A stretch of DNA of 64,000 bases, from contig CAVZEZ010000020.1 of NCBI GenBank assembly GCA_963774425.1, forward strand, positions 29,555-93,554. Direction: 5' to 3'. Made by a program: the position numbers and the translations under genes. A model generated the notes under the pieces. It was not told where the DNA came from and did no database searches. It saw only the letters and a program-made list of their open reading frames with translations. Of the stretch, positions 40,798-53,481 are shown one piece after another (position 1 is the first letter of the stretch; the number at the start of each line of letters is the position of its first letter). Origin of the DNA: an uncultured delta proteobacterium. GTDB lineage: Bacteria > Desulfobacterota > Desulfobacteria > Desulfobacterales > JAFDCJ01.

Positions 40798-41229
40798 TTA
40801 AAACGCATCCGCTAAATACGAAGCGCCGCCGCCTTGCGGACCGGTTGCATTTACCCTGAATAATGCATAATATTTTAAAACTTTTTTGATATACATTCTG
40901 GTTGCCTTAAACGGCGGAACATCACCGTATTTTCTTACGTTGCGGCTGCCGGCATTATACGCGGCCAGTGCCAGTTCGATGTTGCGATCAAACCGGTCCA
41001 GCAGTTTTTTGAAATAGCGCGTACCCCCTTCGATATTGTGGGCCGGGTTAAAAGCATCCTTGACACCGAGATATTACGCCGTTTTAGGCACCAATTGCAT
41101 AAGGCCCCGGGCGCCTCTATGGGACTTGGCATTGGGATTAAAACCGGATTCCGCCATGATGACCGCTTTAATCAGGGCCGGCTCTACCGGCTTCCTTTTG
41201 GCCGGAGGCTTAATCTCAGGGGTTCCCAT
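40798..41229 (-). pseudogene. Lytic transglycosylase (SLT) remnant with a premature TAA
   Basis: My translation is [79 protein letters not shown]. The stop is at 41074-41076 and the N-terminus is missing. Confidence 0.88.
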
Positions 41230-42278
41230 TGCAAAAAGTAGAGATTGGACGCCCCGGCGGTCACCGGCGGCTTCAAATAAAAGAATGCCCGCTCCCGACG
41301 CCCGGCGACGATGAGGTTCTGGTGGCGGTAAACGCGGCCGGGGTCAATTTTGCGGATGTGTTCATTCGATTGGGCCTGTACAAATCCGCCCGGGAATTTG
41401 TGGGCTGGCCGATCACACCGGGGTTTGAATTCTCGGGCCAGGTAATCCTGCCGGGCCGAGATGTGGCCGATCTCGACGAAGGAACGCGGGTTTTCGGGCT
41501 GACCCGCTTTGGGGCCTACGCTTCTCATCTGTGCGTTCCCCGGCGGCAGGTTTATGCAATTTCCGACGACTCGAAATTCAGCGCCGATCAGTGGGCGTCT
41601 TTCCCGACAGTATTTCTGACTGCCTATCACGGGCTTTTTCAGAACATCGTGCTGCGGCCGAAAATGAAAATCCTGGTTCATTCGGCCGCCGGCGGCGTCG
41701 GGGGTGCCTTACTGCAATTGGGCAGGATCGCAGACTTTTACATGGTGGGGGTGGTGGGCGCCGGCCACAAAGTCGATACCGCCCTCAAATACGGCGCCGA
41801 TCACGTCATCGATAAAAGCACCGGCAGTCTCTGGCGCCAAGCCGCACGAATCTGCCCGGATGGTTTCGACGCTATCTTCGATGCCAACGGGCCGGCCACC
41901 CTGAAGCAAAGCTACCGCCACCTGGCCCCCAGCGGCAAACTGGTGAGCTACGGCTTTCACTCCATGCTGTCGATGCGGGGCGGGCTTTTCAATTATTTCA
42001 GACTTGTCTATGAGTATTTGCGGATCCCGCGCTGGAACCCGCTAACGATGACCGCTGACAACAAAAGCCTGATCGCATTTAATCTGTCGTATCTCTTCAA
42101 CAGATTGGACCTTTTGGATGAGGCCATGCATGATCTGCTGAAATGGGTGGAGGAAGGCAAAATCCTGGCGCCGCCGTTGCAGGCGTTTTCATTTGAAAAT
42201 GTCGCCGACGCCCACCGCGCACTTGAATCCGGTCAGACGGTGGGAAAATTGATCTTGACGTTTCCGCAAGGGCGGTAG
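41229..42278 (+). CDS. Zinc-independent medium-chain dehydrogenase/reductase (VAT-1/quinone oxidoreductase-like)
   Basis: [23 protein letters not shown] and GQTVGKLIL motifs. Confidence 0.88.
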
Positions 42279-42415: not shown

Positions 42416-43600
42416 TCAGGATTCAAGCTGCCGTGCATTCGCCAGAGCGCGCCTGAATCCCGCCAACGATTTTTCGAGGGTTGACTCGGGGACGGCAAAC
42501 GACAGCCGGAAATACCCCGGCGCGCCGAAGGCGATGCCCGGGATCGCCAGGATCAGCTCTTCCTGGAGCAAATTCACGAATCCGACGTCGTTGGAAATCG
42601 GGCTTTTGGGAAACAGGTAGAAGGCGCCCTGGGGTACGTTAAACTCATAGCCGGCTTCCGACAGCCCCCGGCAAAGCATATCCCGGCGCCGTCTGTAGGC
42701 TATTGCATCCACCGCGACCCCCTGCAACTGCGCCACGGCCAACTGCGCCAGGCTGGGGGCATTGACGCTGTGCATCGTGTTGACGGACCCTGCGGCGCCG
42801 GCAACCATCACGGCATCCTCGGCGGCCGGATGGACCGCCAGATAGCCGATTCGTTCGCCCGAAATCGACAACGATTTTGAATAGGAGTTGATCATGATGG
42901 TGTGCGGATAGGCTTTAAATACGGAGGGGACTTCCATGTCATAAACAATTTTACGGTAGGGTTCATCCGACACCAGATATATCCGTCGACCGTATTTATG
43001 GGAAGCCCGCTCCAGAATATTGCCCAACGCTTCCAATTCCGCAGCCGAATAGACGGCGCCGGTAGGATTGTTCGGGGAATTGATGAGCATCACCCGGGTA
43101 TTTTCGGTTATGGCGGCCTCGATCGCCGCCGGGCTCAGATGAAAACCGGCGCCCGTCGGCACCGTTTTGAGGACGACGTCCGTCATGAAGGCGTACTGGG
43201 TATAACCGACAAAATAGGGAGCCGGCACCAGAATTTCCTCGCCGGGGTTCATCAGGGTTTTAAAAATGACATTCAATGCCCCGGAGGCGCCGATGGTCAT
43301 AACGATCAAATCCGATGTGAGATTTACCCCGTGCTCACCGCTGAGAAAATCGGCCACGGCCTGGCGGACATGGGTGTGGCCCGGACCGGGGGTATAACCG
43401 TGGCTCAACGAATCGCTGTTTACCAGCTGCCGCAGCACTTTTTTGAATTCCGGCGGCGGGGGGACATCCGGATTTCCGATGGAAAAATCGAAAACCTTTT
43501 CCATTCCATGTACGGCTTTTAATCTGGCACCTTCTTCGAACATCTTTTTGATCATGGTTGAAACTTCGACCATTTTGACCAGTTTTTCAGCAAGCGGCAT
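42416..43600 (-). CDS. PLP-dependent class I/II aminotransferase
   Basis: NSPNNPTG, SDEPY, SYSKSLSISGERIG and GAFYLF motifs. Confidence 0.93.
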   Translation of the reverse strand: MPLAEKLVKMVEVSTMIKKMFEEGARLKAVHGMEKVFDFSIGNPDVPPPPEFKKVLRQLVNSDSLSHGYTPGPGHTHVRQAVADFLSGEHGVNLTSDLIVMTIGASGALNVIFKTLMNPGEEILVPAPYFVGYTQYAFMTDVVLKTVPTGAGFHLSPAAIEAAITENTRVMLINSPNNPTGAVYSAAELEALGNILERASHKYGRRIYLVSDEPYRKIVYDMEVPSVFKAYPHTIMINSYSKSLSISGERIGYLAVHPAAEDAVMVAGAAGSVNTMHSVNAPSLAQLAVAQLQGVAVDAIAYRRRRDMLCRGLSEAGYEFNVPQGAFYLFPKSPISNDVGFVNLLQEELILAIPGIAFGAPGYFRLSFAVPESTLEKSLAGFRRALANARQLES

Positions 43601-43977
43601 CTTTTTTTCCTCGCAGGTATTGCTACCCTGAATAATTGTAGCGGCAAATGCAGAGAACGACATTTTTAATAATCATTGCGTGCATTGCACGATACAAATT
43701 GTAGGTGGTTTCAATGAGTTTATTCGCACAATCAACCGCCGAAATCAACCCGAAACGAAACATTTCAATCTTTTCCAGACAGAGCCGGATGAACATGGAT
43801 CGTGCAGGTCTGTATAGGATCTCAGGGTCCGAAAAAAACCCTCAAAATCAGAAAAAATCCGTATCCCTTTATTTCAAACAGCTAAATTGTTACCTTCAAA
43901 AGGCAAATTCATCAGCAACCCTTCGATTTCCCTCGCATATGCTTTATATTAACTTTAAAGAAAAATGAGGAGGAGCA

Positions 43978-44847: not shown

Positions 44848-45318
44848 TCAGGGAATTTTATCCTCTCTGACCAGCTGCTTGACATCCGGCACCTGCAGAT
44901 TGGCAAAATCGATCAACCATTCTCCCTGCTTGTTTTGTCTGCCGACCCGTCGGCCCTGCTTCAGCCATCGCCGGACGCCGGATTCAGTTAAGTAGGTCAC
45001 ATCCGCGAATTCAGAAATTGTATATGCCTGTCCTGAAACGGATCCTGTTTTTTCCTCGGCTGCCGCTGACTTCGGAGGCCGGGCCACGGCCTTTTTGCTT
45101 GGGGTGTCAAAAGCAGCCTTTTGAGGGCGTTTGATGCGGTCCGGCACCGGTTTCTGTAAAATTTTGGCCTGCAGCTGCCCGAAGGGAATCCGCCATTTGC
45201 CGGATTTTTTAACGGCCTCGATTTTCCCCTCCCGGATCAGTTTAGAAAGCCGGGAATTCGAAATACCGGACCGGGATGCAAATTCTGCTGTTGTCAGAAA
45301 ATGGTTATCCTGCGCCAT
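44848..45318 (-). CDS. Protein with two excisionase/MerR-like helix-turn-helix domains
   Basis: LTTAEFA...IREGKIEAVKKSGKWRI and YTISEFA...RRWLKQG...GEWLI, joined by a Pro/Lys/Ala linker. Confidence 0.75.
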   Translation of the reverse strand: MAQDNHFLTTAEFASRSGISNSRLSKLIREGKIEAVKKSGKWRIPFGQLQAKILQKPVPDRIKRPQKAAFDTPSKKAVARPPKSAAAEEKTGSVSGQAYTISEFADVTYLTESGVRRWLKQGRRVGRQNKQGEWLIDFANLQVPDVKQLVREDKIP

Positions 45319-45503
45319 ATTTTCCCCTTTCATATTTGATTTGCCAAGCCGGCACTTCAAGCTGATATTTATTCAATTGACGAACCACCTGTCAATGGTT
45401 CATTCGGAACATAAGGGGCACTTTTCATTGCGGCGGGTGCAACAGCCAAAAAATAGAATTGAGAGAGCTTCCATTCCGGTGATGGCAGCGGAACAGGCCA
45501 GGC

Positions 45504-46697
45504 TCAATTTTCGATGAACGCCTTGAATTTGCCGAGACCTTCCCTTATCTCTTCCGCATCGATCCCCGAATAGGCGATGCGGATGTAGCGGTTGTCTTCC
45601 CCTTCCAGGGGACGCCCGAAATGCAGCCGCGTGCAAAAGGAGACCCCTGTCTCGCGCAGCAGCATTCGGCGGAAATCATCGTAATTGGTCAGTCCCGTCT
45701 TTTTCATGGCTCCGGTGACATTCGGCCACAGGTAAAAAGTGGCATTGGGGCGAATGCAGCGGACGCCCTCGATATCGTTCAGAAGGTCCACGGCCAGGTC
45801 TCGGCGTTCTTTCAGGATTTCAAGAACCTGTCGGGTCTCGGTCTGATCGCCGATCAATCCTTCGATCGCTGCATACTGAACAAAATGATTGGAACAGGAC
45901 TCCTCGTTCACGTTGAGTTTGATAATGACGTCGATGATGTCCTTGGGCCCGATGCTGGCGCCCAGACGCCAGCCGGTCATGACGAATTTTTTAGAAAACG
46001 TATACAGTATCACGCAGCGGTCGGCCATACCGGGCAAGGAAACCAGGGATTTACTGCGGCTCCCATAACGAATGTCGAAATAGGCTTCATCGCACAGCAC
46101 ATAGAGATCGTACTTTAGCACCAATTCGGCAATCTTTTCAAGTTCGGCCTGCGAGCACTCGGCACCGGTTGGATTTTGCAGATCGTTGAGGACCAGCAGT
46201 CTGGTGCGGGGACTGATCTGTCTTTCGAGCATATTCGTATCGATTTCAAAGTTGTCCCGGCCCTCGATGTATCCGTAGGGAACCGCCCTGCCGCCGTGGA
46301 ATTCAATTTGTGATTCATAGATCGGATACCCCGGATTGGGATACAGCACCTCATCGCCCGGATTCATCATTGTCAGCAAAAATTTACTGATAGTCGGCTT
46401 TCCTCCCGGCTGAATGGCTACATTTTCCATCGCGTACCGAACATGACGGGTGGCACTGACGTCGTCGGCCAGCAGTTGCCGTAATTGGGGGACACCGGCA
46501 TTCGGGCAGTAATTGGTACGCCCTTCCTGCATGGCCCGGATACCGGCCGCCAGTACATTGGCCGGTGTTTTCAGGTTCAAATCCCCTAGGTGAAAAGGAT
46601 ACACCTTGTTGCCCTGGGCGGCAAAGGCGGCGGCCTCGGCCGACACGGCAAAGGCGGTTTCGGTTCCCAGACGCGTGATTCTTTCGGCAAGTCTCAT
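45504..46697 (-). CDS. PLP-dependent class I/II aminotransferase
   Basis: QNPTG, DEAY, TFSKKFVMTGWRLG and ATFYLW motifs. Confidence 0.93.
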   Translation of the reverse strand: MRLAERITRLGTETAFAVSAEAAAFAAQGNKVYPFHLGDLNLKTPANVLAAGIRAMQEGRTNYCPNAGVPQLRQLLADDVSATRHVRYAMENVAIQPGGKPTISKFLLTMMNPGDEVLYPNPGYPIYESQIEFHGGRAVPYGYIEGRDNFEIDTNMLERQISPRTRLLVLNDLQNPTGAECSQAELEKIAELVLKYDLYVLCDEAYFDIRYGSRSKSLVSLPGMADRCVILYTFSKKFVMTGWRLGASIGPKDIIDVIIKLNVNEESCSNHFVQYAAIEGLIGDQTETRQVLEILKERRDLAVDLLNDIEGVRCIRPNATFYLWPNVTGAMKKTGLTNYDDFRRMLLRETGVSFCTRLHFGRPLEGEDNRYIRIAYSGIDAEEIREGLGKFKAFIEN

Positions 46698-46720
46698 GGC
46701 AATTTCCCTCAAAGTTTTTC

Positions 46721-47866
46721 TTATCCTTCAAACAGCGGCAGAGCCAGGGCCTCCGCGTTGACAATGCTCGGCGCGGCTTTGGGCGGATCGTCGGTCAAAA
46801 AAGGCAGAATATCCGTCTTGTCCCAGACCGGGTACCCCAGCAGGATAGCGGAGACATTGCGGGCCGCCAGGGTGGCCATGCCTTCGCGTGTCCAACGGGT
46901 TGCCGAGGCAATATGGGGGACAATGACCACATTGTCCAGTTGATTCAAGCCGGGTTTCAGCTCCGGCTCATCTTCGAACACATCGAGACCGGCGCGAAAA
47001 TCAGGGTGCGTGCGGCAATGGGCGACCAGTGCCGCTTCGTCGATCACCGGCCCACGGCTGGTATTCACCAAAACGGCATTTTCCTTCATCCGGGAAAGCC
47101 GTTGCGCATTTATCATATGGTGCGTGGAATCGTTCAGCACGGTGTGAACGCTGACACAATCGGCATGCTGCAGCAAATCCTCGAGATTTTCCGCACGCCG
47201 GCAGGAAACCGGTTCCTCACCCCGGGATTCAAGATAACCCCCGTAAGCGGTGATGCTATCCTCAAGGTCCTTATTGGCGGAGACATCATGGTAGATCAGA
47301 TTCATCTTGTGGCCTTCCACCATCATGCGTGCATAGGTTGATCCGATACGTCCGGCACCGATGACTCCCACGGTCTTGCGCCACAACAACTCGCCCAGAA
47401 AAAGGGTCATCAACCATCCTTTATATTTGCCTGCCCGCAGAAACCGTTCGGCTTCGCCGGTGCGCCGGGCCGCTGCAAAAGTGAGTGCAACGGCCATCTG
47501 GGCTGTGGTTTCGGTTAGCACCCCCGGTGTATTGCCCATCGGAATTCCATGCCGGGTGGCTGCCGCCACATCGACGTTGTCATAACCCACCGCGACATTG
47601 CTGTAGGCGGTAGTTCCGGCGGCCTTCAATGTGCTGAAAAGCGCTTCGCCCCAGTCTTCCGTCAGTTGACCTAGAACGGCATCGCAGCGCTTGCCCACGG
47701 AGGTCTTTATATCGTCCACGCTGAGTACATCGGTGGCGGTACAGATTTCGACCCGGCATCCAGCACCGGTCAGTATATCCAGCCATCGGGTGCCCGGCAA
47801 TTCTTTGGTGACGACAACGCGTCTTTTTCCGGAAGGATTAACTGTTCTCCAGTCTTTTGAGTCCAT
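46721..47866 (-). CDS. Hydroxypyruvate reductase/D-glycerate dehydrogenase, plant HPR1-like
   Basis: PGTRW...CRVEICT, GQLTEDWGE, GNTPGVLTETTA, GAGRIGSTYARMMVEG, PHIASA and WTREGMATLAA motifs. Confidence 0.9.
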   Translation of the reverse strand: MDSKDWRTVNPSGKRRVVVTKELPGTRWLDILTGAGCRVEICTATDVLSVDDIKTSVGKRCDAVLGQLTEDWGEALFSTLKAAGTTAYSNVAVGYDNVDVAAATRHGIPMGNTPGVLTETTAQMAVALTFAAARRTGEAERFLRAGKYKGWLMTLFLGELLWRKTVGVIGAGRIGSTYARMMVEGHKMNLIYHDVSANKDLEDSITAYGGYLESRGEEPVSCRRAENLEDLLQHADCVSVHTVLNDSTHHMINAQRLSRMKENAVLVNTSRGPVIDEAALVAHCRTHPDFRAGLDVFEDEPELKPGLNQLDNVVIVPHIASATRWTREGMATLAARNVSAILLGYPVWDKTDILPFLTDDPPKAAPSIVNAEALALPLFEG

Positions 47867-48151
47867 TTAAAAATCTCCTTCACTTTAGGGGTACCGTGAC
47901 CTCGATTAAACGGCACATTGGTGATTTTGTCAATATTTTTTAATTTTTCTATGTTTTATTCAAAATCGAGACGATTACTTGTTGATTTGTTCAATTCAGG
48001 TTCACACAACGACAAATTCACGATCTCAGGCGAAGTGGCATATTCCCGGCCAAAAGCTCACTCAAAACGGAATCATCGGATACGCTGAGGTTTCAGCCCA
48101 ACCGGGAGGAGTACAGGAGTGAATAAAATGGAAAATATCCGGTATGAGTCC

Positions 48152-48745
48152 TCAGATCCGGGAAAAGCTGATCTCATCCGACGGTCTGATATCCGCTTTA
48201 AAGGCGGTCTGCATCACCGCCAGCGCCTGTTTATTTTGCCGGTGATCGACGGATACGATACAATCCGAAGGAATAAGGAGTTTGAAATCGCGCATATACG
48301 CATCACTGGCAGTGGAGAGCACACACATATTGCCGCTCATCCCGGCTAAAATCAAGGTATGAACGCCGAGATGCTTTAGCAAAATTCCGAGGGGCGTGGA
48401 GTAAAAACCGGAAATTTTCGGTTTTAAAACAAAATAGTCATCTTTGTCGGGCCGCAACAATTCCACCATCGATTTTCCACACACGTTTTGCTCGAGGCAG
48501 CGGTTGACAATGGTATTGAAGTCGGAGCGCCACTTTCCGAAGTTGTCGTTTACATAAACTACCGGAATGCCGTCCCTTTTTGCCCGTTTCTTCAAAGCGG
48601 CGATTTTTTTAGCCATGGGCAGGGCATGCTTCAATACTTCCTTGCCTTCTTTAAACTCAAGATCGTTGATGACATCGATCAGCAGAAGCGCAATGGATGC
48701 TTCATCAGGTGCGTTGCCATGCAGATCCTTGGTCCTTATGGCCAT
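48152..48745 (-). CDS. Isochorismatase-family cysteine hydrolase
   Basis: LLIDVIND, LKPKISGF, GNMCVLSTASDA (catalytic Asp/Lys/Cys). Confidence 0.9.
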   Translation of the reverse strand: MAIRTKDLHGNAPDEASIALLLIDVINDLEFKEGKEVLKHALPMAKKIAALKKRAKRDGIPVVYVNDNFGKWRSDFNTIVNRCLEQNVCGKSMVELLRPDKDDYFVLKPKISGFYSTPLGILLKHLGVHTLILAGMSGNMCVLSTASDAYMRDFKLLIPSDCIVSVDHRQNKQALAVMQTAFKADIRPSDEISFSRI

Positions 48746-48841
48746 TTGGGTTTCTCCTTGCCGCTCGGGATCGGCCGCATGCCCACTCACTGAAGCAATA
48801 CAATCAGCATATGCGAACAATTATTCTCACCGCGGGCCGCA

Positions 48842-49108
48842 TTACGCGTCCCGGCGAGAATCGCGCAGCGCTTTTTTGTATATCTTGCCCGAACCGGTTT
48901 TGGGAAGTTCCTTCAAAAAAACGGGCTCTTTAGGCGCCTTGTATGAGGCCTGGTGTTGCTTGCAAAATTGGATAATTTCAGCGGCGGTCGCGCTTTCATT
49001 TTCCCTGAGAACCACGGCCGCCGGCACCGCCTCGCCCCATTTTTCATCCGGGATGCCGAATACGGCCGCTTCCAGTACCTTGGGGTGCATACAGAGCGCA
49101 TTCTCGAC
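48842..49108 (-). pseudogene. C-terminal fragment of an acyl-CoA synthetase
   Basis: VENALCMHPKVLEAAVFGIPDEKWGE...LPKTGSGKIYK, preceded directly by an in-frame TAA and AT-rich DNA. Confidence 0.82.
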
Positions 49109-49154: not shown

Positions 49155-51815
49155 CTATCTCTTCGAAAGCTCGTTCTTTACTGCCAGCCCGAGGTATTTT
49201 ATGGTGTATGGTTTTTTTACATATTCTCCCGCGCCGAGTTCCTGGGCATTTTTGACACTGTCGGTTTCGGAAAAACCACTGGTTATAATTGCCTTCTGGC
49301 CGGGTTTGATTTCAAGCACCCTTTTGTACGTTTCAAGGCCATCGATTCCCGGATCCATAATCATATCCAGCACCAACAGGTCCACTGCTTGTGCCTTTAG
49401 ATACGCAACGGCTTCCAAACCGTTTGACACGGTTTCTACTGAATATCCCAATTGAGACAGGATGGAAGCCGCTATGATCCTCTGTTCCTCAATATCGTCC
49501 ACCACCAGCAGAGATTGGCCGTTTCCTGACAGATCTCTCAGGTCGTAGGCGTCTTCTCCTTTAGCGGGCTCTTTTCTGGTCACAGGAAAATAGAGTATGA
49601 ACCGGGTTCCGGAATCGATTGTACTCTCGATATCGATAAATCCGTTATGATCTTTGACCGTTCCCCACACCACCGACATTCCGAGTCCTGTTCCGCTGCG
49701 GCCCATTTTCTTTTTGGTGTAAAAGGGCTCGAAGATCTGCTCGATATCGTTTTCGGATATCCCCAGGCCTTCATCGGATATCTCCACTACGACATAATCC
49801 CCCTGCTCGATTTCATTGAGGCCGACCGGGGCTTTGTCGACATATTTGTTTAAAGTGACGATTTCTACCTTCCCCCCCTGGGGCATTGCTTCGGCGGCAT
49901 TGGATACCAGATTCATAATGGTTTTCGACAGGTGTATGGGCGAACCCTCGATGCATAAAAGATCTGATGCAAGGTTCGTCTGCAATTTCACATCCGGGTG
50001 GTGAAATTCGAGTTTTTTGAATTCCGGACTGCTCAAATAATCTTCAATGATCTTGTTCAGATCAACAACTTCAATGGTGGCGACACCTCTTCTGGCCAGT
50101 GTGAGCAGGTCAAGGACAATTGCAGATGCCTTTATGCCCGACTGTAAAATGGTTTTCAGCGGTTTATGCAGGGAACTGTCTTCAGGCAATTGCATCAGCA
50201 GCAGTTCGGGATAGCTTACGATCCCGGACAAAATATTATTCAGATCATGGGCCACGCCACCCGCAAGCGTTCCGATCGCCTCCATTTTTTTGGCTTTATG
50301 CAGCTTTTTTTCCAGTTCCCGCTTGGCTTCTTCGGCATTCAGCCGTAGGGTGATATCCTTTCCGGAGAGGACGGTTCCGATATTCTCATTTTTCCCATTA
50401 ATCAATGGATTATATGCAATTTCATAAACCCTGGTTCCCTCTTTCGTTTCTATATTTATTTTGACAACGTTTTCCTTTAAATGGTCCGCCGGTTGGTTTC
50501 CGAATCCGAAATTCCGCGGAAGATTTATTAAGCAGTCAAAAATTGGCCGGCCGGCGGCATTTTGACCGGATGTATCCATGAGATCCCGGGCTGCTCTGTT
50601 TGAGCGTATGATCCTGTTTTGTTTATCCAGCAAAAAAATGATGTCATCCACAGAATCGAACGTATTTTCCCAATCCGAAAGAGATTCGTGCAGCGAAATC
50701 ATGACCTGGTTCAGATTTTCATGCATCGTTTTAAATGCAACGACAAGGTCGCCGATCTCGCCGCCCTCTTTAATCTCATCCAGTTTTTGGTTGAATTCCC
50801 GTTGGTTGGCAGTTAATCGATACTGGTTATCCGTTCGAAGCCCGAGGAGTTGGCTGGCCTCCTGCAATTTTAAAAGCGGACCGGTGAATTTTTTCATAAA
50901 AAGGGCGGCTGCAAATACGGAAATGATGGCGGCAATAACCATGGCCATACATATTCTAAAACGGGCCTCGCTAATTGGTGCATATGCCTCCTGTTTAGTC
51001 TGTTGGGCGGCCACAATCCAATGGGTGCCCGGAATATGTTTTAGACTGATCAGCATGGGAACACCGCGTGAATTTACAGTTTCGCCGGCACCTTCGAACC
51101 CATTGATAGCGGCATCGAAAAGCGGATTGGATCCCACGGGAACATCGCTTTTAAGGATTCGTTCCTCTTTCGGATGCAGGATCATGAGCCTGTCCTTTGA
51201 ATAAACATAGATATAGCCCGTTTTTCCGATTTTGGTAAGCCGAATCCCTTCAAGCGCCTTGAGGGAGGTTAATTGTACCGAGCATCCCAGCAACCCGATA
51301 ATCCGGTTGTCTGTACCTTTCAAAATGGCCGTGAATGTCAACACGGGTTCTCCGGTTCGCGCCGATCTGTATGGGGTGCCGACGATACCTTTTTTTCCCT
51401 CCAATGTTTCCCGAAAGTACTGGCGAAAAGCAAACGACTTTCCTCTGACTTGCGGATGGGCCGGGTAGTCGCTCCATATTGTCCCCTCCCGGTCGAGTAC
51501 AAACATGCCGTTTTCAAATTTTGAAAAAATTTGTGAAAAATCTTTAAGATGGTCTTCGATCACCTTCGCATCTCGGCTTTCGAGGGCGTGTTTAGGCAAT
51601 GCCTGAGCAACCGCCTGAGCCTCCATCAGTGTATCCGATAAAAACCGCGATATGACCTGCGAGGAGGCATCGCTGACACCTGAAAGACCCTTCTGGATCG
51701 AATCGCGCAAGGACATTTCGAAAAAATCAAGGTAAAAATAGCCCAATAGCCCGATGGTGCAAGTAATTAAAATACCTAATAGAATCGATGCCTTTGCACG
51801 CAAGGTCATTTGCAT
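49155..51815 (-). CDS. Hybrid sensor histidine kinase (Cache-HAMP-PAS-HisKA-HATPase-REC)
   Basis: Two TM segments, AGGVAHDLNN, FYTKK...GTGLG, VVDD, LDMIM and KP motifs. Confidence 0.93.
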   Translation of the reverse strand: MQMTLRAKASILLGILITCTIGLLGYFYLDFFEMSLRDSIQKGLSGVSDASSQVISRFLSDTLMEAQAVAQALPKHALESRDAKVIEDHLKDFSQIFSKFENGMFVLDREGTIWSDYPAHPQVRGKSFAFRQYFRETLEGKKGIVGTPYRSARTGEPVLTFTAILKGTDNRIIGLLGCSVQLTSLKALEGIRLTKIGKTGYIYVYSKDRLMILHPKEERILKSDVPVGSNPLFDAAINGFEGAGETVNSRGVPMLISLKHIPGTHWIVAAQQTKQEAYAPISEARFRICMAMVIAAIISVFAAALFMKKFTGPLLKLQEASQLLGLRTDNQYRLTANQREFNQKLDEIKEGGEIGDLVVAFKTMHENLNQVMISLHESLSDWENTFDSVDDIIFLLDKQNRIIRSNRAARDLMDTSGQNAAGRPIFDCLINLPRNFGFGNQPADHLKENVVKINIETKEGTRVYEIAYNPLINGKNENIGTVLSGKDITLRLNAEEAKRELEKKLHKAKKMEAIGTLAGGVAHDLNNILSGIVSYPELLLMQLPEDSSLHKPLKTILQSGIKASAIVLDLLTLARRGVATIEVVDLNKIIEDYLSSPEFKKLEFHHPDVKLQTNLASDLLCIEGSPIHLSKTIMNLVSNAAEAMPQGGKVEIVTLNKYVDKAPVGLNEIEQGDYVVVEISDEGLGISENDIEQIFEPFYTKKKMGRSGTGLGMSVVWGTVKDHNGFIDIESTIDSGTRFILYFPVTRKEPAKGEDAYDLRDLSGNGQSLLVVDDIEEQRIIAASILSQLGYSVETVSNGLEAVAYLKAQAVDLLVLDMIMDPGIDGLETYKRVLEIKPGQKAIITSGFSETDSVKNAQELGAGEYVKKPYTIKYLGLAVKNELSKR

Positions 51816-52257: not shown

Positions 52258-53481
52258 TCAGTGAACCTTGCCGCCGCGATATTCGACCCCCAACAGACTG
52301 ATGTCATCTTCCGGTTTTGCTCCCTTGCGGAAATTTTTGGCATATGAGTAGGCTGCATCGACCATCTTTCCCACAGGCTCACTCCGGCATTCCTGCAGGA
52401 TGTTATAAAAACGTGCCTTCCCGAAAATTTCTCCGGACGGACTTCGATTATCTATCAGGCCGTCCGTGTATAGGATAATCTTGTCGCCTGCCTTCAATTT
52501 GATTGCCTGGTGTGAGAGCACCTGCTTGCTGCCGATACCGATAGTGGGGCCCCGCTGATCGAGTATCTCTATGGATCCGGTCGGATGCACCAACAGCGGC
52601 GGCGGATGTCCGGCGCTGCTGTAAGTCAGCAATCCCTCGGTGACATCGATGGTCATGCAGATAATGCTGAAGAAACTGTCGAATCTTTCGAACGGGAAGG
52701 CTTCATCCAGCCGGTTCAAAACAATCTCCGGCGATACGAGTTCACACTTGTTGCCCAAAAGGCCGTCGCCACTGTTTAAAAACTGCGAGACTGCTACCGA
52801 AATCAGGGCCGCCGGCACCCCGTGGCCGCATACGTCGAGCATGTACAGACCGACATTGCGTTCGTCCAAATTATGGATGTTGAATATGTCACCGCCCACC
52901 TGCTCGCATGGTTCAAATCGCCATGCAATCTGAATGTTGTCGATTTTCGGTGACCGATCCGGCAACAAACTTTGTTGGATGGCTGCCGCAGATGCCAGGT
53001 CCCGATTGATAAGTGCCTGCTTTTTCTGAAGCTCGATTTTCTGCAGTTCGATCGCGGTCACGTCATAGATGATGATCAGGAACATGCGACGCCCCTGAAA
53101 GGTAATCGGTCGGGTGCTGAACTGAAAATGTTTCTCAACGGGCTTTCCGTTGATATAAAATACCCGATTCAGCGGCTGGTTGTCCACCGGTGCGCTCTCG
53201 ATGAGATTTTGCAGCAGGGATTTGCGCAGGATGCATTGCGAGCATTTCGAAGTTTCACCGCATGGTTTTTTTTCAAGGATGGCATTGACACACCCAACGG
53301 CATCGCCGAAGGTGGTCTCCAAAACGGATTCGGTCGCGCTGTCGAATAAATTGTGAAAGGAATGGTTGAACTGGTGGATGTGCAGGTCTTCGTCGGCGAT
53401 GAGCACGGCAGAGTTGATATTATCGAGCAAAAGGTTGAGAAATTCGTTGGATTCCTTTAAGCTTTGTAGTTCCGTCCACAT
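52258..53481 (-). CDS. PP2C/SpoIIE-family phosphatase with an N-terminal PAS-like domain
   Basis: IQQSLLP, GGDIF, DVCGHG, AGHPP, YTDG and DDISL motifs. Confidence 0.92.
   Translation of the reverse strand: MWTELQSLKESNEFLNLLLDNINSAVLIADEDLHIHQFNHSFHNLFDSATESVLETTFGDAVGCVNAILEKKPCGETSKCSQCILRKSLLQNLIESAPVDNQPLNRVFYINGKPVEKHFQFSTRPITFQGRRMFLIIIYDVTAIELQKIELQKKQALINRDLASAAAIQQSLLPDRSPKIDNIQIAWRFEPCEQVGGDIFNIHNLDERNVGLYMLDVCGHGVPAALISVAVSQFLNSGDGLLGNKCELVSPEIVLNRLDEAFPFERFDSFFSIICMTIDVTEGLLTYSSAGHPPPLLVHPTGSIEILDQRGPTIGIGSKQVLSHQAIKLKAGDKIILYTDGLIDNRSPSGEIFGKARFYNILQECRSEPVGKMVDAAYSYAKNFRKGAKPEDDISLLGVEYRGGKVH

Follow-up and report, generated by a model that had tools for sequence, protein, structure and literature searches.

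The plant literature generally regards hydroxypyruvate reductase 1 (HPR1) as a photorespiratory enzyme peculiar to plants. In serine-cycle and photorespiratory metabolism, a serine aminotransferase (SgaA, SGAT, AGT1) and a reductase (HprA, HPR1) lead from serine via hydroxypyruvate to glycerate, which is then passed to glycerate kinase. Matelska et al. (2018) placed HPR1 inside the heterogeneous GHRB subfamily (PMC6303947), and a study on Chlamydomonas assigned it to a 'plant subgroup' (PMC8264790). In Desulfovibrio desulfuricans, a sulfate reducer, serine transamination, hydroxypyruvate reduction and glycerate kinase were proposed as an alternative branch for serine assimilation within the reductive glycine pathway (Sanchez-Andrea et al. 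2020, PMC7547702); that branch comprised generic 2-hydroxyacid dehydrogenases and a pyruvate:serine transaminase, was poorly expressed, and no dedicated operon or HPR1-type enzyme was identified there. Here we analyzed a 64,000-nucleotide stretch of DNA (the window) from an uncultured delta proteobacterium of the order Desulfobacterales (assembly GCA_963774425.1, contig CAVZEZ010000020.1, positions 29,555 to 93,554), in which the gene of a predicted HPR1-type dehydrogenase is followed by that of a class-I aminotransferase. We propose, with reasonable though far from full confidence, that this operon turns L-serine via hydroxypyruvate into D-glycerate. The features of the locus, in coordinates of the window, are as follows:

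46721..47866, minus strand: HPR1-type hydroxypyruvate/glyoxylate reductase (D-glycerate dehydrogenase), predicted to be NADH-dependent, 381 aa (Pfam, BLASTP, tree)
45504..46697, minus strand: class-Ib aminotransferase, resembling aspartate aminotransferase (AspAT) and dependent on pyridoxal phosphate (PLP), proposed serine:2-oxoacid aminotransferase, 397 aa (Pfam, PDB matches)
46698..46720, minus strand: intercistronic spacer of exactly 23 nt with the ribosome-binding site of the aminotransferase gene (sequence reading)
47867..47933, minus strand: candidate promoter and leader of the operon (read by eye)

The dehydrogenase matched the Pfam families 2-Hacid_dh and 2-Hacid_dh_C. An earlier sequence-only reading of this DNA had likened the protein over its full length to plant HPR1 on the basis of several motifs, and all of these were found: NPSGKRRVVVTKELPGTRW (residues 10–28), CRVEICT (37–43), QLTEDWGE (67–74), YARMMVEGHKMNLIY (178–192) and PPKAAPSIVNA (361–371). 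The comparison with Arabidopsis HPR1 that this reading had suggested was run against protein P0279 ('Glycerate dehydrogenase HPR, peroxisomal [Arabidopsis thaliana]', fetched from a protein database) and bore out the likeness. In BLASTP, 374 of 381 residues aligned with 59% identity and 77% positives (E 5e-161), and the alignment extended into the C-terminal PPxAxPSIVN block. The window protein was collinear over its whole length with plant and green-algal HPR1 (Arabidopsis At1g68010; KEGG K15893 'hydroxypyruvate reductase 1') and shared with it the insertions at residues 208–223 and 345–360, the N-terminal NPxGKxRVVxTKxxPGxRW and C-terminal PPxAxPSIVN motifs, an NAD-type Asp and the Arg/Glu/His triad.

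We then aligned, without recourse to structures, the window protein and its counterparts from Arabidopsis, Chlorella and a member of the Thermoleophilia with five generic enzymes. Common to the former and missing from the latter were the N-terminal NPxGxxRVVxTKxLPGxRW block, QLTEDWG, a one-residue insertion in MMVEG, a 16-residue insertion in the NAD domain (208–223) and an insertion of about 16 residues (345–360) ahead of the C-terminal PP..PS(I/L)(V/L) block. E. coli GhrB, Pyrococcus GyaR (2dbq) and human GRHPR belong to the same 2-hydroxyacid dehydrogenase (2HADH) fold family and have the same catalytic residues, but enzymes of this generic kind measure only about 320–335 aa and are devoid of both 16-residue-size insertions. 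The best solved structures were generic archaeal glyoxylate reductases, Pyrococcus GyaR among them (E 1e-51), and their alignment left a 16-residue gap opposite query residues ~208–223; the PDB sequence-search matches comprised generic reductases only and no plant HPR1 structure. Scores against the NCBIfam models for GyaR glyoxylate reductase (232 bits, cut-off 455) and GhrB (179 bits, cut-off 492) stayed under the cut-offs, and no NCBIfam equivalog cut-off was reached. The nucleotide-binding GxGxxG motif is represented by GAGRIG (residues 170–175), Asp194 occupies the NAD-specificity position and favors NADH, and the catalytic triad Arg271/Glu300/His318 is invariant. These features assign the dehydrogenase to the HPR1 type rather than to generic GhrB/GyaR and make NADH-dependent reduction of hydroxypyruvate its probable activity, with glyoxylate as a probable side substrate. 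The word 'peroxisomal', which the sequence-only reading had attached to the enzyme, does not apply. Plant HPR1 is peroxisomal or mitochondrial and the Arabidopsis protein ends in SKL, whereas the window protein ends in ...LPLFEG and has no SKL-type peroxisomal targeting signal (PTS1) at its C-terminus, as expected of a bacterium; the signal marks the plant organellar isoform, not the enzyme family. A further difference from plant HPR1 lies in the setting, namely an anaerobic host with no photorespiration and an operon shared with a class-I aminotransferase.

Of the 8,000 candidates that a word-indexed protein search kept, at least 7,910 reached E ≤ 1e-30. The best 120 matches were 77–93% identical and 379–399 aa long; they were mostly metagenomic, and several of the best matches bore the name 'Desulfobacterales bacterium'. 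Many relatives are called 'hydroxypyruvate reductase 1' by IMG, so the enzyme type is already known in bacteria at the level of annotation. When 50%-identity representatives were searched exhaustively, the top match was a Thermoleophilia protein (58%), and only about 10 full-length representative clusters scored above ~240 bits, the level at which generic reductases of ~320 aa begin. Orthologues (E ≤ 1e-80) occurred in 51 of 201 GTDB species genomes of the host's order, covering 33 of 125 genera, and in only 9 of 301 genomes drawn evenly from the phylum. The HPR1 type is thus not rare, being common in one order of sulfate reducers, and the bacterial clade spans Desulfobacterales, Planctomycetota, Armatimonadetes, Thermoleophilia and Myxococcota.

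A tree of 62 sequences was calculated with IQ-TREE under LG+C20+F+G4 with posterior mean site frequencies (PMSF), 1000 ultrafast bootstraps and the Shimodaira–Hasegawa-like approximate likelihood ratio test (SH-aLRT). Besides the window protein and seven Desulfobacterales-type relatives, it held 18 rows labelled bacterial, four metagenomic rows of unknown origin (all HPR1-type), eight land plants from liverwort to Arabidopsis, six named green algae, an MMETSP transcript and the C-terminal half of a protein from the amoebozoan Soliformovum. The outgroup consisted of 16 generic GhrB/GyaR-type proteins from named genomes and representative clusters; a motif scan of genome contigs, which used motifs common to all 2HADHs, gave generic GhrB-type loci only, and these served as the named outgroups. 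Red algae, glaucophytes, named stramenopiles and cyanobacteria were not part of the sampling. The HPR1-type clade, 46 rows including the window protein and plant HPR1, was split from the 16 generic rows with 100/100 support across a branch of ~1.3 substitutions per site, and a quick tree agreed with this split. A grouping with generic GhrB/GyaR enzymes, which would have spoken against the sequence-only reading, did not occur, since the tree joined the window protein with plant HPR1 at 100/100. The same reading had also raised the prospect of a special sister group or donor of the eukaryotic enzyme, and here the tree was less obliging. Viridiplantae HPR1 formed one clade (100/97), which together with two bacterial groups made up a trichotomy (node 90/87). 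One of the two groups (15 rows) contained the window's Desulfobacterales clade (99/99), a Planctomycetota sequence and a 'transketolase-context' group, while the other comprised four bacterial rows. Below the trichotomy node branched Armatimonadetes, Soliformovum, P0126, Thermoleophilia, the MMETSP sequence, a Myxococcota group and the P0128 group. The window protein therefore represents one branch of a large bacterial HPR1-type clade rather than a special sister or donor, and the tree gives the plant enzymes no single sister group.

Forcing all bacterial HPR1-type rows to be monophyletic cost 24.8 log-likelihood units (p 0.044 in the approximately unbiased (AU) test), where one of the 18 bacterial-labelled and two of the four metagenomic rows were counted as Viridiplantae, having fallen in the green-algal clade. 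Bacterial monophyly was thus rejected only marginally, and two points weigh against reading much into this value: the hypothesis was framed after the tree had been seen, and the plant nesting sits partly on long deep branches. Nesting of Viridiplantae HPR1 within a mostly bacterial HPR1-type clade is favored but not secure. It favors a bacterial origin of the eukaryotic enzyme, and the green-lineage HPR1 probably branched from within the bacterial clade; the window's Desulfobacterales lineage ranks among the bacterial groups nearer to plants but is not a demonstrated donor. We consider it improbable that the HPR1 type arose instead in eukaryotes and was then transferred to bacteria once or more. 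The small cost of bacterial monophyly leans that way, as do the MMETSP transcript and Soliformovum, both non-plant eukaryotes without settled tree positions. But Thermoleophilia, Armatimonadetes, the Myxococcota group and the P0128 group branch below Viridiplantae, bacterial and metagenomic members of the type number in the thousands, and the Desulfobacterales clade is coherent and found across a quarter or so of the sampled genera of its order (33 of 125).

The partner enzyme matched Pfam Aminotran_1_2 and reached the cut-off of none of the 68 NCBIfam models that it matched, the best aspartate aminotransferase model (PRK06107) giving 226.5 bits against a cut-off of 617. Its best PDB matches, the Ib aspartate aminotransferases 6f77 and 1j32, aligned end to end (E ~1e-54). 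Like the enzymes of subgroup Ib (Thermus 1bjw, Phormidium 1j32, Rhizobium AatA 6f77), it carries the Schiff-base Lys of the PLP site (SK236), Asn175, Asp203/Tyr206, a C-terminal Arg (Arg373) and the GGK100 lysine; these residues were read from the alignment with 6f77 and 1j32. It differs from them in having GDLNL (within HLGDLNL) in place of the AspAT consensus GEPDF, and in its genomic partners, an HPR and a fusion of the glycine-cleavage protein GcvT with serine hydroxymethyltransferase (SHMT). In Ib enzymes, as known for that of Thermus, the GGK lysine binds the distal carboxylate of aspartate or glutamate. Because this distal-carboxylate Lys is retained, the amino-group partner would probably be glutamate/2-oxoglutarate or aspartate/oxaloacetate, and we infer that the enzyme acts on a dicarboxylic amino/oxo acid pair together with a small hydroxy or oxo acid pair. 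A class V serine:glyoxylate/serine:pyruvate aminotransferase (SGAT/AGT) was ruled out as an identification of the partner, which has the Aminotran_1_2 and not the Aminotran_5 fold.

The two genes are predicted to form a bicistronic operon. The sequence-only reading had given the gap between them as 23 nt, which is exactly the length of the spacer. GAGGG at 46710..46706 is the ribosome-binding site for the aminotransferase ATG, and since it sits 9 nt upstream of this codon we preferred the ATG (397 aa) over an alternative TTG start at 46712 (402 aa). The dehydrogenase gene has its own ribosome-binding site (AGGAG, 47879..47875) and is preceded by a candidate promoter composed of TTGACA (47933..47928), a 17-nt spacer and TTTAAT (47910..47905). 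A consensus promoter scanner did not list this TTGACA-17-TTTAAT site because it admits only –10 hexamers whose second base is A. No terminator-like site was found on the minus strand between the two genes, nor any riboswitch upstream of the operon.

The same gene order, HPR then aminotransferase, was kept in two long metagenomic contigs (L085 and L086), in three genomes of the host's genus (G309, G386, G479) and in three of other families (G145, G358, G485). In all, seven of the sampled genomes, which represent four or more families of the order, had the two genes side by side, and several close relatives shared a block composed of a PPDK_N/response-regulator protein, an AMP-binding ligase, the HPR and the aminotransferase. 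Orthologues of the aminotransferase (≥69% identity) were present in 19 of the 201 genomes of the order; 11 of the 19 also had an HPR1-type gene (4.8 expected, Fisher p 0.0015), adjacent in seven of the 11. Neighboring genes in relatives pointed to glycine, serine and glycerate. A protein with DUF4147 and MOFRL domains, of the glycerate 2-kinase family, directly follows HPR in the complete genome G264. A 929-aa fusion of GCV_T and SHMT is encoded divergently to the HPR-aminotransferase pair in G145, and in G303, which has no HPR1-type gene, an 883-aa GcvT-SHMT fusion lies directly after the aminotransferase. GcvT follows HPR in G297 and G117. In G438, of the host's genus, HPR is followed by a soxBDAG-like heterotetrameric set resembling sarcosine oxidase, with a DAO beta subunit and a 971-aa alpha subunit containing Fer2_4, SO_alpha_A3 and GCV_T domains; the aminotransferase of this genome still adjoins the AMP-binding ligase. 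As a side observation, a cobalamin riboswitch (107.8 bits; L102:3399-3586, minus strand) was located ~800 nt downstream of the HPR1-type gene of G450.

Fusions of an aminotransferase with a dehydrogenase were also encountered in eukaryotes, known from transcriptome data only, as both proteins are transcriptome models. In P0122, a 789-aa protein of the amoebozoan Soliformovum irregulare, an aminotransferase half (39% identity with that of the window) is followed by a C-terminal half of the HPR1 type (56%), and the protein ends in the PTS1-like tripeptide AKL. In P0230, a 790-aa protein of the green alga Chloroparvula japonica, a generic 2HADH is attached to an aminotransferase half that shows 44% identity with the one in the window; this aminotransferase half carries the signatures of the window subfamily, H(L/I)GD, QPGGKP, FCTRxHFG and RY(I/V)R(I/L)A(Y/F)SGID. 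Together, the conserved adjacency, the GcvT-SHMT and glycerate 2-kinase neighbors, which were found piecemeal in separate relatives, and the eukaryotic fusions appear to tie the aminotransferase functionally to the HPR. The serine/hydroxypyruvate/glycerate route that the sequence-only reading had put forward gains support from these neighborhoods and fusions.

The host genome (6.46 Mb, 40 contigs) is in keeping with such a route. Its anaerobic nature, assumed by the sequence-only reading, is backed by a DsrA of 620.6 bits (curated cut-off 392.85) and by relatives that are named Desulfobacterales. SerA (643 bits, cut-off 454) and SerC (486 bits, cut-off 253) are present, so that the phosphorylated pathway is available and the pair is not needed for serine synthesis; we thus ruled out the pair as a serine biosynthesis route. 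The reverse direction, from glycerate to serine, seems unnecessary for the same reason. Two MOFRL kinase homologues (contigs C6 and C40) scored best against archaeal glycerate 2-kinase models, below the cut-off. The host also encodes a GcvT-SHMT fusion of 883 aa (C26:74453-77101, plus strand). Such fusions are single open reading frames of 883–929 aa with GCV_T, GCV_T_C and serine hydroxymethyltransferase domains; others were located at L142:301-3087 (minus strand) and L161:6656-9304 (plus strand), with 63–69% identity among three genomes of the order, in two of which the fusion adjoins the aminotransferase or the HPR-aminotransferase pair. We know of no described GcvT-SHMT fusion. A soxBDAG-like cluster (C13:2-9108, minus strand) encodes a 407-aa beta, a 109-aa delta, a 972-aa alpha and a 232-aa gamma subunit, and is followed by a 447-aa FAD protein and two EtfB/EtfA-like genes, these being named from their N-terminal sequences only; its counterpart in a congener (L147:9300-14433) comes directly after the HPR1-type gene. 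The FAD and EtfB/EtfA-like genes behind the cluster suggest that, in a strict anaerobe, it would encode a dehydrogenase linked to electron-transfer flavoprotein rather than an oxidase. As a separate observation, the same contig C26 bears a second pair (277342-279772, minus strand), in which a 397-aa class-I aminotransferase, 33% identical to that of the window, lies directly upstream of a 2-Hacid_dh protein of ~353–405 aa that reaches no curated family cut-off.

From sequence and comparative genomics we infer the substrates, direction and physiological role of the pair as follows. The AspAT-Ib-like aminotransferase would interconvert L-serine and hydroxypyruvate, and the HPR1-type dehydrogenase would reduce hydroxypyruvate to D-glycerate with NADH. 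The remainder of the route may be supplied by genes elsewhere, namely the GcvT-SHMT fusion, the sarcosine-oxidase-like cluster and the MOFRL-type glycerate 2-kinase homologues, so that glycine or methylated glycine would be converted to serine, hydroxypyruvate, glycerate and finally 2-phosphoglycerate; the glycine might also derive from sarcosine or betaine. The proposed chemistry is that of the serine-cycle and photorespiratory pair, yet here the aminotransferase is of class I, the kinase candidate is of the MOFRL 2-kinase type and the host is a strict anaerobe. A bolder version, which we regard as possible but doubtful, holds that Desulfobacterales run the 'return half' of photorespiration as a means of glycine and C1 assimilation. 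Two glycines would yield serine by way of the GcvT-SHMT fusion, an unrecognized class-I serine aminotransferase would replace class-V SGAT, and HPR1 and glycerate 2-kinase would complete the path to 2-phosphoglycerate. The aminotransferase-HPR1 unit would then be the bacterial module behind the eukaryotic peroxisomal HPR1, still fused in an amoebozoan and there provided with the PTS1-like AKL end.

Several observations weigh against conversion of serine to glycerate by a dedicated pair. Canonical serine:glyoxylate and serine:pyruvate aminotransferases belong to class V, and the host has a separate class-V, BhcA-like aminotransferase on contig C35. Only HPR and aminotransferase are adjacent in the host, its glycerate kinase and GcvT-SHMT genes lying elsewhere. 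A glycine riboswitch was absent upstream of the operon and in 20 related loci. In metagenomic contigs of other bacteria (L089:1-7125 and L090:1-7146), the HPR1-type gene is the last of a block that encodes a TctC-(TctB)-TctA transporter, an AP_endonuc_2 TIM-barrel protein resembling hydroxypyruvate isomerase and split transketolase N and C subunits, a context that suggests hydroxypyruvate chemistry but another pathway. Finally, 8 of the 19 genomes with the aminotransferase have no HPR1-type gene and 40 of the 51 with an HPR1-type gene have no such aminotransferase; neither gene strictly depends on the other, since each occurs alone in many genomes. Strict co-occurrence was accordingly rejected in favor of a partial one (11 of 19 genomes). 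These solitary copies, together with the full-length similarity to Ib aspartate aminotransferases and the retained distal-carboxylate Lys, would fit a general aspartate/dicarboxylate aminotransferase that is merely co-transcribed with an independent HPR1-type reductase. We nevertheless judge an absence of dedicated coupling quite unlikely in view of two independent cases in eukaryotes where an aminotransferase of this type is fused to a 2-hydroxyacid dehydrogenase, the adjacency retained in four or more families, the position next to a GcvT-SHMT fusion in G303, and a sequence that has HLGDLNL for GEPDF and leaves AspAT equivalog cut-offs unreached.

If the genes are coupled, their substrates may still differ from those proposed. 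HPR1-family enzymes accept glyoxylate too (PMC6303947; established plant biochemistry), and the neighbors in relatives, GcvT-SHMT and sox-like genes, are centered on glycine. The aminotransferase might then act on glycine/glyoxylate and the dehydrogenase convert glyoxylate to glycolate, for detoxification or glycolate use, with serine and hydroxypyruvate as minor substrates. This appears unlikely to us, as the glycerate 2-kinase gene straight behind that of HPR in G264 speaks for glycerate as the product, an SHMT fused to GcvT yields serine and not glyoxylate, and none of the HPR copies examined had a glycolate oxidase, glcDEF or malate synthase next to it. A link to aromatic or other 2-oxoacids, by which aromatic or branched amino acids would be deaminated and reduced to the matching 2-hydroxyacids, could be read from the IOR (iorAB) operon at ~35.2–39.0 kb of the window, a second aminotransferase at 42416-43663 and the AMP-binding (acyl-CoA) ligase ahead of the HPR-aminotransferase pair in close relatives. 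We give it very little credence: 59% identity to plant HPR1 with all family-specific elements kept argues for a conserved substrate, IOR is not beside the pair in relatives, and known hydroxyphenylpyruvate reductases fall in other GHRB branches (PMC6303947). Conversion of serine to glycerate thus continues to be the interpretation that we prefer.

Current knowledge is not overturned by this locus; the chemistry of the enzyme is established, and automatic annotation already names the gene HPR1. In the literature searched, we found no description of how large the bacterial clade is or of Viridiplantae nesting inside it, of a recurrent pairing and fusion with a class-I aminotransferase, or of an association with GcvT-SHMT fusions in sulfate reducers. 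The locus and its relatives physically tie the HPR1 type to a class-I aminotransferase in bacteria, and one of the two protist fusions contains the HPR1 type as well. Should the partner indeed be a serine:2-oxoacid aminotransferase, it would represent a non-class-V solution for the step from serine to hydroxypyruvate, and the whole would constitute a glycine/serine assimilation route in anaerobes that bears on variants of the reductive glycine pathway. Soluble bacterial homologues could moreover serve for a first crystal structure of the HPR1 type.

The surroundings of the operon appear to have been rearranged. Upstream, an 82-aa open reading frame (48842-49090, minus strand) is a leftover of an AMP-binding_C domain only; it shares 82% identity with the C-terminal end of an intact acyl-CoA ligase of ~520 aa that precedes the HPR-aminotransferase pair in close relatives. 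In the window, three other genes seem to have taken the place of this ligase and of the PPDK_N/response-regulator gene; their products are an isochorismatase-family protein (48152-48820), a hybrid sensor kinase (49155-51815) and a SpoIIE phosphatase (52258-53481). The second class-I aminotransferase (42416-43663, minus strand), ~3 kb downstream of the operon, matched NCBIfam PRK06836 with 481 bits (cut-off 376). Also downstream lies a PIG3-type quinone oxidoreductase (41229-42278, plus strand), and an excisionase-family helix-turn-helix protein (44848-45360) is encoded between the operon and these two genes.

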